Shown here in pieces: positions 23,056 to 26,224 of a stretch of 64,000 nucleotides of DNA (position 1 is its first letter; every line of letters starts with the position of its first letter). Both the position numbers and the translations under genes were made by a program. Under the pieces are notes generated by a model that was not told the DNA's origin, searched no databases, and saw nothing but the letters and a program-made list of their open reading frames with translations. The DNA is from Longimicrobiales bacterium. GTDB lineage: Bacteria > Gemmatimonadota > Gemmatimonadetes > Longimicrobiales > Gaopeijiaceae. Where the stretch lies: assembly GCA_965226375.1 (NCBI GenBank), contig CBDDCX010000008.1:1536001-1600000 (forward strand), in the 5' to 3' direction.

Positions 23056-23295
23056 CTAAGAAGCCCGACCTAGAGCTGAGCGCAATCGTCTGCGCAACTC
23101 GACGTCAGACATGGCGGCGAGCGCCCGTTCCGCCGTGCCCGAGCTGTTCCAGCGTACGTCCACGAGGCTCACACCATCGTCGGCGGCGCCCTCCACATGG
23201 AGGTGCAGGTAGTAGCGACCCTTGTAGTCCGTACCCGACTCCGATCGCACGGTCGCCACCCAAGCGCTTCCGTTTTCGTCCAGGAATTCAGTCAT
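23056..23295 (-). CDS. Small hypothetical protein (79 aa)
   Basis: MTEFLDENGSAWVATV...ELRRRLRSALGRAS; lies 47 bp downstream of the AraC-type gene on the same strand. Confidence 0.65.
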   Translation of the reverse strand: MTEFLDENGSAWVATVRSESGTDYKGRYYLHLHVEGAADDGVSLVDVRWNSSGTAERALAAMSDVELRRRLRSALGRAS

Positions 23296-23342
23296 GAGAT
23301 TGGATTGAAGGTGATCGTTTCGGACCACATCAGGCGCAGCGA

Positions 23343-24146
23343 TCAGGCGACCGAGATGCGCGACGTGGTCGAAGTCTCGAACCCACAATCTCGCAGAAAG
23401 TGTCTGAGCACGAAGGACAGCACCCCCCGCTCGGCCACCGTCGTGGGCGTTGCGCCGGTAAAACCCTTCAGGGCCCGTCGGAAGGCCGCACCGGACGAAT
23501 ATTCCAACTGGCGACTGACACTCTGCCCGGTCCGCCCGGGATCCCCCAGCCAATGCCCCGCATGGAGGAGTCGAGACCACACGAGGAGGCGTCCGATAGC
23601 CGGCAGACCGGTCCTCTTCAAGCAAACGCTAAGGAAGGGTCGCGACAGGCCCATGAGTTCGGAGAAGCCCTCGGCCGACCAGCACTTGTGAACCTGGTCC
23701 AGGACGAGCCGTAGTGCCTTCGACTCGCGTGGCGTGAGGTCGGGGCTGACCTCCCGCAGAACGCGCGAGGTCACACCTCGTTCTTGAGCCTTGTCGACAC
23801 TTCGGCGCAGGCGCCACGCCTGATCCTCACTGTTCAGGACTACGAGGCTTCGGAAGCCCAGGCGCCCCACCTCGAACAGTGTTCGTGGATCCTCCTTGTC
23901 GCCGGCCAAGAGCACGAATCCCACGCTCGGGAACTGACGGCGCACCCTCAGAAGCCGCTCCAGTCCACCGGGCCCCCATCCGAGCGATGTCAAATCGACC
24001 ATACACACACTCACAGGTCGCTCTCGAAGTGACAGTGCCAGCCAACCAAGCGTTCTGGCCTCGGCAACGTCATGCACGGTCGAGAGTGCCTCTCGGAGGC
24101 CGGATTGCACCTCGGGATTCCGGGTAAAAGTGCTTACAAGTGCCAT
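23343..24146 (-). CDS. AraC-type transcriptional regulator with degenerate receiver-like N-domain
   Basis: C-terminal double HTH (WSAEGFSELMGLSRPFLS...VSRQLEYSSGAAFRRALKGFTGATP); N-terminal REC-like pattern (VCMVDL...VRRQFPSVGFVLL). Confidence 0.82.
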   Translation of the reverse strand: MALVSTFTRNPEVQSGLREALSTVHDVAEARTLGWLALSLRERPVSVCMVDLTSLGWGPGGLERLLRVRRQFPSVGFVLLAGDKEDPRTLFEVGRLGFRSLVVLNSEDQAWRLRRSVDKAQERGVTSRVLREVSPDLTPRESKALRLVLDQVHKCWSAEGFSELMGLSRPFLSVCLKRTGLPAIGRLLVWSRLLHAGHWLGDPGRTGQSVSRQLEYSSGAAFRRALKGFTGATPTTVAERGVLSFVLRHFLRDCGFETSTTSRISVA

Positions 24147-24151
24147 GACCT

Positions 24152-24205
24152 TCGGAAAAGGTATACCCCTAGTCGGAAATGATTGCGGCACCCAAAGATG
24201 CCGCA
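24152..24205. promoter_or_regulatory. Candidate operator region between divergent AraC gene and peptide gene
   Basis: TCGGAAA direct repeats at 24152 and 24173 (21-bp period) flanking GGTATACC; inverted repeat TGCGGCA-N8-TGCCGCA at 24184-24205. Confidence 0.45.
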
Positions 24206-24278
24206 TCCACCTTATTAACGAGCTATACCGTCCAGTCCCCCCTCACCAGAGCCCATCTTCGGGAAGGAACCCGGTCTA

Positions 24279-24413
24279 ATGACGAAGCTTCGCCTCTTTT
24301 TCGCCGTCGCAGCCCTCTCGTTCGCGTTGAGCGCGTGCTCATCGCCCGCGGGCCTGGACTGCGCTGCCGGAGACAGCATGTGCCAGACACTCGCTCCGGG
24401 TGGCAACGGTTAA
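24279..24413 (+). CDS. 44-aa exported/lipoprotein pro-peptide (not in the ORF track)
   Basis: GGGAAGGA RBS at 24261-24268. MTKLRLFFAVAALSFALSAC-SSPAGLDCAAGDSMCQTLAPGGNG*: basic n-region, hydrophobic h-region, LSAC lipobox. Confidence 0.8.
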   Translation: MTKLRLFFAVAALSFALSACSSPAGLDCAAGDSMCQTLAPGGNG

Positions 24414-26224
24414 GGGCCCTGCGCTTCCGTTGAAACCAGCTGGTCCCGCATAGAACTCAACTCACTACGTACCCCCTCGATATCTTCGAGGGTCGTGGTA
24501 TCAAAGCTCGCACCGGCATCCTCGGCCACGGGTTCTCCCGCCCTGAGGGCTTCGAGTGCAGCCTCTGCCTGGAAGAAGATCTGGTGGTTGCCGTGCTCTT
24601 CGGAGTGCGTCTTCGCTTCGGTCATCCAACGTCCGGCGAGTTCGATATCTCCGAAGAGGCCGAAGGCTTGGCCTCGATTCAGAAGCAGTTCGGAGACCAT
24701 GAAGGACGGCCCGTTTCGCCATCCAGTCTCGTCCACGGCTTCGAGTCGATCCTCGAACTGTTTGCGACGGCCCAGCCGAGCCTCGATGTAGGCCAGGGCT
24801 TGTAGCGCATAGACCTTATAGCGGAAATCCTCCGTACGATGGGCCACCACCGTGTACGCGTCTTCCGCCGAGCCGAGCTCCCCCACCTCGACGAACACCC
24901 AAGCCAGGTCCGTCAGGGCGTGGAGCTGGTGCCGCTCGGTCGGATGGAGGCGAACGGCCTCCCACCCGTGGTGGATAGCCTTTCCGTATCGACCGGACAA
25001 CTGCTCGTCGGTCATGAGGTCGTGGTGGCCGAGTCCCTGGACATAGCCGTCACCGTCAGATTCTCCCCACTCGAGGCTCTGACGATGTAGCTCGAGGGCC
25101 TTAGGCAGATTTCCCTTCTCACGGGCGGTGTTCCCGAGCCCGTTCAGGGCCAGTGCGGACAGCCTGCCGTCGCCGAGGGCCTCACCAAGGTCCTGGGCCA
25201 CCCCATACCATTGCTCGCTATCCTCCCAGGCGCCGAACCGGCGATGCGCTCTACCGAGGAAACGGGCGGCGGGGCCGGCGATGGCCGCCGATCCACAGGT
25301 CATGGCGACCTGGTAGGCGAGGCGGAAGATCTCCCGGGCTCCATGCAGGTGTCCGAGCATGTCCACCCGGTCGCCCAACTCGAGGAGCGATCGGCCCAAC
25401 TCCACCCCGTCACCCGAGCCGAGGGCCTCCAGAACCGCGCTCCAGCTCTCGCGCTCGGGATCACCCGCGTCCACGGCGTCCAGCTCGCACTTCACGCCTT
25501 CGACCTGCTGTCGAAGCGCTTCGGGATCCATGGTGAGCTCTTCATCCAGCGCGGAGCGCACAGCCCGGGCCACCAGGAAGCGGGTGGCAATGCGGCGATT
25601 CGTCTCGGCATCGTTCTCCCGTCCCTCCAGGTCTTTGAGGACCGCCCATCCGGAGAAGGTCTCGCCTGCCGCTGGATCGGAACTCTTGCTGAAGCGCTTG
25701 GGACCCGTGGCCTTACGGTCCAGATCTTGATGGAGAACCACGGCCGCCGCCTCACCTGCGACGAACATCAACTCGTCGGTGACATCCACGGCCAATCGCT
25801 GTCGAGGGGTCAGCGAGTCCACGATGAGGAACCAAGCCCTGGTCCCGTCACTGCCCATAGCGACGCAGCAGGAACTGCGAACACCAGAGATCGGGATTTC
25901 TCCGGCCCGCTCGATATCCGGCTTGTCGAGCAGACCCGGTACGCCCTTACCCCACGCCACCCTGCACGCCTCTACCGCGAAGTTACGTCGTGGGGGCTTG
26001 CCCACGAGATCGAGCAGGCAGTGCACGTGAACCAGACCGGGCCCGTACTCATCGACCCATACGACGGCGGCCCGATCGGCCTCCAGCAACTCTTGCGCAC
26101 ATGCGAGATGCCCCAAAAGGCAGGAGCGTACAGGGTCTCCGCGGTAGAGCGCCGCGATCTCCTCTGACCGCTTTGCCCGCCCACTACGGTAATCTGAGAG
26201 TCGTGGAACGTTCGAAGTAGACAT
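24410..26224 (-). CDS. TPR-repeat protein with N-terminal GAF-like domain
   Basis: C-terminal TPR-like helices (ALALNGLGNTAREKGNLPKALELHRQSL, ALTDLAWVFVEVGELGSAEDAY). N-terminal GAF-like pattern (ADRAAVVW...VRSSCCVAM...WFLIVDS...DELMFVAGEAA). No HTH seen. Confidence 0.8.
   Translation of the reverse strand: MSTSNVPRLSDYRSGRAKRSEEIAALYRGDPVRSCLLGHLACAQELLEADRAAVVWVDEYGPGLVHVHCLLDLVGKPPRRNFAVEACRVAWGKGVPGLLDKPDIERAGEIPISGVRSSCCVAMGSDGTRAWFLIVDSLTPRQRLAVDVTDELMFVAGEAAAVVLHQDLDRKATGPKRFSKSSDPAAGETFSGWAVLKDLEGRENDAETNRRIATRFLVARAVRSALDEELTMDPEALRQQVEGVKCELDAVDAGDPERESWSAVLEALGSGDGVELGRSLLELGDRVDMLGHLHGAREIFRLAYQVAMTCGSAAIAGPAARFLGRAHRRFGAWEDSEQWYGVAQDLGEALGDGRLSALALNGLGNTAREKGNLPKALELHRQSLEWGESDGDGYVQGLGHHDLMTDEQLSGRYGKAIHHGWEAVRLHPTERHQLHALTDLAWVFVEVGELGSAEDAYTVVAHRTEDFRYKVYALQALAYIEARLGRRKQFEDRLEAVDETGWRNGPSFMVSELLLNRGQAFGLFGDIELAGRWMTEAKTHSEEHGNHQIFFQAEAALEALRAGEPVAEDAGASFDTTTLEDIEGVRSELSSMRDQLVSTEAQGP

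Follow-up and report, generated by a model that had tools for sequence, protein, structure and literature searches.

A conserved Gemmatimonadota cassette of lipobox precursor, TPR protein and AraC regulator as a candidate Rap-Phr-like peptide signalling circuit

Does a compact three-gene locus in a diderm bacterium encode a peptide signalling circuit resembling Rap-Phr? We addressed this question for a stretch of 64,000 nucleotides (nt) from a Longimicrobiales bacterium (assembly GCA_965226375.1, contig CBDDCX010000008.1, positions 1,536,001 to 1,600,000), referred to as the window in the following. At this locus, the gene of a 267-amino-acid (aa) AraC-family regulator (23343..24146, − strand) is divergent from that of a 44-aa precursor (24279..24413, + strand), and the precursor gene converges on that of a 604-aa tetratricopeptide repeat (TPR) protein (24410..26224, − strand), the two stop codons overlapping by 4 nt. 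An earlier note had read this arrangement from the letters as a peptide-signalling module; all three open reading frames (ORFs) were confirmed in place, and all three genes are intact. We propose that the small lipobox precursor yields a heptapeptide that occupies the groove of the TPR protein and thereby controls the AraC regulator, and we assign this reading, according to which a diderm has a peptide signalling circuit akin to Rap-Phr, a probability of roughly 60%.

The gene trio is a conserved Gemmatimonadota cassette. In 198 of 210 loci, the TPR gene has a convergent lipobox ORF next to it (66/69 genome, 49/53 metagenome and 83/88 phylum loci), compared to 31 of 7,013 control windows (0.44%) taken from the same loci. 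The count covers loci whose TPR frame is closed and is followed by at least 400 nt, out of 79 genome, 80 metagenome and 89 phylum loci examined, some of which duplicate each other; the phylum loci are the best-scoring matches, with unpublished genomes and some contig-end matches skipped. The small-ORF filter was relaxed once, its stricter first version yielding 187/210 versus 18/7,013. An AraC gene follows the TPR gene within 800 nt and in the same orientation in 181 of 192 loci (65/67 genome, 35/37 metagenome and 81/88 phylum loci), and lies upstream of it in four more. These two counts decisively contradict the outcome that the earlier note had named as fatal to its proposal, namely homologues lacking an adjacent small ORF or AraC gene. 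The stop-to-stop gap between precursor and TPR gene is at most 30 nt in 84 of 118 loci. The 12 loci without a small ORF include a frameshift (L032), an N gap (L052), a deleted 5′ end (L141), three cases in which the TPR gene is truncated and AraC is absent (L103, L185 and L150) and one in which the precursor gene is present despite the filter miss (L110); the remaining misses are L007, L029, L201, L247 and L248.

A Gemmatimonadota host, as the note had supposed, is borne out by the records of the relatives: 78 of the 79 genome loci matching the TPR alignment name Gemmatimonadota taxa and one an uncultured bacterium. Of 301 genomes sampled from the phylum, 155 contain a match to the window TPR protein at E ≤ 0.001 (a tally that includes four unpublished genomes), and 106 of 251 family genomes contain one to the TPR alignment at E ≤ 1e-20. 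The homologues fall into two subfamilies with about 25% identity between them; the long one, GAF-bearing and about 600 aa in length, is that of the window, and the short one measures about 430 aa. No relative was found among 41 pattern matches in viral contigs, plasmids gave two weak records only, and no second such cassette was found in the window's own genome. A short-subfamily cassette, unannotated in the collection, lies on plasmid 1 (NZ_CP007129.1) of Gemmatirosa kalamazoonensis KBS708, which is in culture.

The precursor of the window consists of a basic and hydrophobic signal peptide, a lipobox (LSA-C20), a linker with two cysteines and one C-terminal unit, LAPGGNG (24390..24410, + strand), the predicted ligand. 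The earlier note had called it a secreted peptide; its signal is of the lipobox type rather than a plain secretion signal. Throughout the family, precursors combine a basic n-region, a hydrophobic h-region and a lipobox Cys at position 19–28 (by our own filter rather than SignalP), and the predicted Sec-type export route is that of signal peptidase II (SPII) rather than SPI; NCBIfam lipoprotein-signal matches of the window precursor are weak and below cut-off. Precursor lengths range from 29 to 98 aa in the long subfamily (107 precursors) and from 39 to 88 aa in the short subfamily (80 precursors). Tandem repeats of 2–10 copies occur in 85 of the 107 distinct long-subfamily precursors, 77 of these 85 with a period of seven residues (e.g., HTIGSGN, YTPGPNS, YNPDPGQ and IQPGTGN), and about 70 different units are found among 100 loci.

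Adjacent copies differ by 619 synonymous versus 28 non-synonymous codon changes, the latter number being biased down by a repeat detector that wants near-identical units. By codon position the differences amount to 40/29/622, and this third-position excess is not a detector artefact, because a near-identity filter cannot create it. The repeat units are conserved as protein. Short-subfamily precursors show repeats in 6 of 80 cases and carry at least two further cysteines in 54 of 79, which suggests that these precursors form loops. L042 has two tandem precursor genes between TPR and AraC, both with IIPGPNT; here a whole gene has been duplicated, not a unit within it. In L005 and L006, the precursors have an acidic tail ending in NNN.

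The precursor gene of the window is covered without gap by one contig in each of two DNA runs from different studies (differing at 1 and 7 letters, respectively, in about 3 kb), and its single unit is therefore real and not a collapsed repeat. RNA contigs, assembled from two of four runs of one study that each contain a fraction of 0.08–0.12 of the sequence words, are short, lie on the 5′ part of AraC and the GAF part only, with none on the precursor gene, and are uninformative.

If the TPR protein reads the unit, the two should covary. We compared the heptapeptide positions with 494 TPR-protein and 216 AraC columns (710 in total) over 85 loci with all three genes, using mutual information with tree-simulated characters as the null (344–400 simulations per position); the four unit phases were set by hand, and one locus without a parsable unit was dropped. 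Unit position 1 covaries with TPR residues 478 (z 8.2), 475 (7.9) and 516 (6.7), position 3 with 472 (6.2) and position 5 with 361 (7.1), while the best AraC column, serving as a control, reaches 5.4. Excluding the window and using a tree from AraC only, the values are 9.3 for 475, 8.1 for 478, 7.3 for 472, 7.3 for 361 and 6.0 for 516. Eleven control positions in signal peptide and linker reach z of at most 5.4, some of them nominally significant; the null is therefore somewhat lenient and only z ≥ 6 is trusted. Covariation below this value (e.g., at 61, 71, 199, 316, 322 and 398) falls within the control range and is not relied on.

Ligand-contact positions in the TPRs of HOP are 2, 5, 6, 9, 12 and 13 of the repeat (available text of PMC1261162), and the corresponding positions of the window's seven TPR-like repeats (aa 277–546; 24587..25396, − strand) are enriched for covariation, with 5/38 versus 2/212 at z > 5 (p 0.001) and 11/38 versus 12/212 at z > 4, in a register derived from the consensus Leu-Gly/Ala signature and set after the covariation had been seen. 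A held-out set of 28 loci, 38–91% identical to training, remained after dropping one identical locus, one with an internal stop and six of another subfamily. Here, His or Tyr at unit position 1 goes with Asp475 in 23/23 loci and other residues go without Asp475 in 5/5, and Asp361 is accompanied by Ser or Thr at position 5 in 8/8. The p-values overstate significance because kin are not independent. The covariation test between unit and TPR groove that the note had proposed is thus positive, with z of 6.2–8.2 above a tree-simulated null and the main rule holding in 28/28 held-out loci. These data support recognition of the C-terminal unit by the TPR protein, and the heptapeptide very probably binds it. 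From the positions involved, the peptide N-terminus is predicted to lie at TPR6–7 and its C-terminal part at TPR2–4; free peptide ends would call for proteolytic release.

The window itself departs from its kin. It carries one LAPGGNG together with Gln475/Asn516/Gln519, compared to 3–7 copies of HNPGGNG or HNPGSNG with Asp475/Tyr516/Lys519 in relatives at 78–83% identity. Other lineages without His/Tyr at position 1 have altered the same receptor sites (L116, L117, L053, L062, L081 and L098). Its unit and receptor residues 475 and 516 have likely switched together to a new pherotype.

The TPR protein has a GAF-helical-TPR architecture and is the predicted receptor. Pfam TPR_12 matches the window protein at E 1.7e-12 and 81 of 81 members. 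The GAF-like domain (about residues 20–170; 25715..26167, − strand) is recognised by ESM Atlas (0.98 to GAF clusters) and by GAF_2 in 3 of 81 members, so that the GAF-TPR assignment of the earlier note stands; the domain is confined to the long subfamily, and short-subfamily matches begin near profile position 200. All 81 long members have Arg328, as do 78 of 79 short ones, and Arg321 is conserved. Signal peptides and membrane segments are absent from both the TPR protein and the AraC protein, the former being predicted to be soluble and cytoplasmic. A search of the PDB returned generic TPR proteins such as LGN/Pins (E 1e-15), with entry 5dbk, which we take to be an NprR-like entry, below them (E 0.0012). 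No RRNPP family model is among the Pfam, NCBIfam or PHROGs matches of the TPR proteins, and PHROGs returned nothing for four of them. Stand-alone GAF-like-only homologues of about 200 aa without a neighbouring lipopeptide also occur (G000:C6:520079-520684 and L333–L340); two of them (L334 and L335) lie near an ORF that by eye resembles an ECF sigma factor.

The AraC protein is the likely output of the cassette. Its ORF extends over 23343–24206 from the first ATG, and the conserved start at 24146 is Met in 82 of 85 homologues. HTH_18 is matched at E 1.1e-6, and the receiver-like N-terminus gives weak matches only (HupR1 receiver, E 0.35; Response_reg in 1 of 77 members). Of 85 homologues, 79 retain Asp51 and 66 have Asp10, with no conserved Thr/Ser or Lys at the places expected for a receiver; the assignment of Asp51, Thr/Ser and Lys to phosphorylation-site positions is our presumption. 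A pseudo-receiver is a plausible description of this N-terminus.

In the divergent spacer (24147..24278), TCGGAAA occurs at 24152 and 24173, a period of 21 bp, with a third box near 24209–24213. The profile of 99 long-subfamily spacers has its best self-match at lag 21, and many short-subfamily spacers contain plain direct repeats of 21–22 bp. A spacing of 21 bp is typical of AraC/XylS sites. Across the genome, the box profile scores 45.7 at the window spacer, itself in the training set, and 9.5 at the next site. These boxes are likely an AraC operator driving the precursor gene, in a spacer that likely holds the promoters too; a sigma-70 promoter scan gave 0 sites and Rfam 0 matches. The link between TPR protein and AraC rests on synteny and co-loss, and the former probably acts directly on the latter. 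L005, L006, L007 and L029 are rearranged, AraC preceding the TPR gene on the same strand, and in L114 and L141 AraC and the precursor 5′ end are deleted, leaving 1–3 orphan INPGPNG units beside an open TPR frame.

Sister cassettes carry other genes in place of AraC. L327 (3228–4100, − strand) and L329 (906–1787, + strand) hold an XRE-type (HTH_31) gene of roughly 290 aa near AraC-less pairs of TPR and convergent lipopeptide genes, located upstream of the pair on the opposite strand. In a second cassette type from a genome of the window's genus, a 208-aa gene without Pfam family occupies the AraC position (L321:3307-3933, − strand). The module thus seems to swap output regulators.

In the circuit that we propose, the precursor would be exported by the Sec route, lipidated and cleaved by signal peptidase II, after which proteolysis would free the units, with tandem copies raising the dose, and a peptide permease would return them to the cytoplasm. 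The genome encodes one signal peptidase II (LspA) and two family-5 peptide-binding proteins. The peptide N-terminus would then be held at TPR6–7 (Asp475) and the C-terminal part at TPR2–4 (residue 361, Arg321/Arg328). Most likely, the peptide-free TPR protein would keep AraC inactive and bound peptide would free it, and freed AraC would act through the 21-bp repeats to drive expression of the precursor in a positive feedback, with the GAF domain adding a second input. On balance, we consider passage of the signal between cells to be favoured.

A number of observations weigh against this circuit. A lipid-anchored precursor needs cutting free and its signal must cross two membranes, and neither a protease nor an importer is encoded in the cassette. 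No second strong operator-profile site was found in the genome and no regulon was identified. Mutual information between TPR and AraC columns with average product correction (APC) gave no coherent signal over 85 paired loci, the top pairs being dominated by few columns in an analysis corrected by APC only and not for the tree. The AraC link is not obligatory, because sister cassettes carry an XRE-type gene or one without Pfam family instead. The residue code has exceptions: in the training set, Asp475 occurs without His/Tyr1 in four loci and the reverse in one (5 exceptions in 85), and Ser/Thr5 is found in 6 of 20 held-out loci without Asp361. The detector bias and the nominally significant control positions described above count on the same side. 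Finally, the odd unit of the window could be drift in a decaying system, because several close relatives are damaged, with AraC in pieces in L031 and L033, a precursor frameshift in L032 and an internal stop in L078, although such damage may also stem from assembly error.

How do other explanations fare against these data? A chance origin of the small ORF, or a neutral tandem repeat of DNA in its place, with unrelated neighbours, is suggested by its small size only; the frequency of 198/210 against a background of 0.44%, the codon-position differences and the covariation between unit and receptor refute it, and we give it virtually no weight. Precursors of ribosomally synthesized and post-translationally modified peptides (RiPPs) often carry repeated cores. 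Together with weak NCBIfam matches of the TPR proteins to HaaT (53 of 81 members) and FxSxx_TPR (one member), this could mean that the repeats serve as core peptides and that the TPR protein is the scaffold for their maturation, as HaaT or the TPR protein of FxSxx systems would be. For the window, however, the HaaT score is 24 bits, confined to the TPR part, against a cut-off of 1125, a lipoprotein signal stands in place of a leader peptide, and EamA and the 79-aa gene usually bound the cassette and leave no room for a modifying enzyme, rendering a RiPP-type locus very improbable. A membrane-active effector of entericidin or microcin type, with the TPR protein as chaperone or immunity factor and AraC as simple activator, is improbable to a slightly lesser degree. 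Size and lipobox resemble those of small lipoprotein toxins and toxin-immunity pairs are also expected to covary, but the mature regions are polar, Gly/Pro-rich and by inspection not amphipathic, the number of unit copies is free to vary between 1 and 10, and the TPR protein resides in the cytoplasm and bears a GAF-like sensor domain.

The weightiest competitor shares the recognition step. In a cell-autonomous circuit, the precursor would report export, lipoprotein maturation or periplasmic proteolysis, or act as a delay timer, and the units would stay in the cell that made them. Release is hindered by the lipid anchor as well as by the outer membrane, genes of a DacB-type carboxypeptidase and an EamA transporter adjoin the long subfamily, no other target site was found in the genome, and covariation fits any direct contact. 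The diversity of units with matched receptor changes and the presence of up to 10 copies, however, resemble selection on private signals and dose, which is reported for RRNPPA propeptides (available text of PMC9765709 and PMC11343458), and an export monitor would not need private codes. We regard the cell-autonomous alternative as unlikely, while ranking it above the other rivals, and retain the peptide signalling circuit. A wider formulation has about even odds as a whole. In it, the cassettes form a phylum-wide, independently evolved family of peptide communication in diderms, with lipid-anchored polyprotein precursors (linear heptapeptide arrays or Cys-closed loops), cytoplasmic TPR receptors that have a readable residue code, swappable AraC/XRE outputs and, in the window, a pherotype switch of peptide and receptor together.

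The borders of the cassette follow from its losses. Of five family genomes that lack the TPR gene, three lack the whole trio and have the 79-aa gene adjoining EamA; since the three genes are lost together while this one stays, the cassette consists of the trio, with the 79-aa gene as a flank. In the window, this gene (23056..23295, − strand) lies within the span that the earlier note had given for the module. It is present in all five TPR-less family genomes, and was rejected as a fourth member because it persists where the trio is missing or decayed; it has no Pfam, NCBIfam or PHROGs family and serves as a conserved marker of the insertion site. EamA, the 79-aa gene and the DacB-type carboxypeptidase gene are the usual flanks.

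We compared the cassette with known systems. Five features delimit RRNPP pairs in the available text of PMC10075063: a propeptide of 10–100 aa, a Sec-type export signal, a receptor of 250–500 aa, TPRs and directly adjacent genes. The window cassette shows four of them (propeptide length, export signal, TPRs and adjacency), while its receptor of 604 aa exceeds the range because a GAF-like domain is added; the short subfamily, with open frames mostly of about 410–480 aa, falls within it. We liken the cassette to Rap-Phr and do not file it as an RRNPP member, because no family model matched and generic TPR structures outrank the NprR-like entry. As in Rap-Phr, the HTH-less branch of RRNPP/RRNPPA in Bacillus and its phages, and above all as in anti-activators (e.g., RapF on ComA), a soluble TPR protein without HTH lies beside a small exported precursor with a C-terminal unit of 5–7 residues and tandem copies (PMC9765709, PMC11343458, in part), and a conserved helical region precedes the TPRs, at the place taken in Rap by the target-binding 3-helix bundle (PMC3601965, in part). 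The predicted peptide polarity is also that of Rap3T, in which a C-terminal Asp meets the peptide N-terminus, Asp338 and Gln182 meeting the N- and C-ends, respectively (PMC11343458, in part). Different from Rap-Phr are the diderm host, convergent rather than tandem genes, a dedicated adjacent AraC, the lack of an RRNPP model match and, in the window's subfamily, the GAF-like domain and the length of 604 aa. A lipobox is present in every precursor found by our filter, which requires one, whereas SPII cleavage is predicted for 211 of 2,734 RRNPPA propeptides (PMC9765709, in part).

NprR/NprX, PlcR/PapR and AimR/AimP likewise pair a TPR receptor with an adjacent precursor, a heptapeptide-sized ligand and repeated pheromones, but their receptors bind DNA, while DNA binding here resides on the separate AraC. 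With AraC-family activators at tandem half-sites the cassette shares HTH_18, a divergent gene and 21-bp-spaced direct repeats in the spacers of both subfamilies; it differs in the receiver-like N-terminus, the lack of a kinase in the cassette and an input predicted to be a protein partner.

PMC10075063 and PMC9765709, in the text available, describe peptide quorum sensing via TPR receptors in the cytoplasm as a trait of Bacillota, and the available part of PMC12700828 makes no mention of Gram-negative hosts. Outside subscription journals and supplements, we found no literature joining RRNPP or peptide-TPR signalling with Gemmatimonadota, and the cassette is apparently undescribed. If the circuit operates as proposed, diderms would use gene-encoded peptide signals and Gemmatimonadota would possess a counterpart of this Bacillota trait, raising the question of how a lipoprotein-borne peptide gets released and crosses two membranes. 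With about 70 ligand-receptor pairs, the cassettes are a natural collection of uncommon cleanness, and they offer a testable code that links unit position 1 with residues 475/478/516, position 3 with 472 and position 5 with 361, and in Gemmatirosa kalamazoonensis KBS708 a cultured host with the cassette exists.

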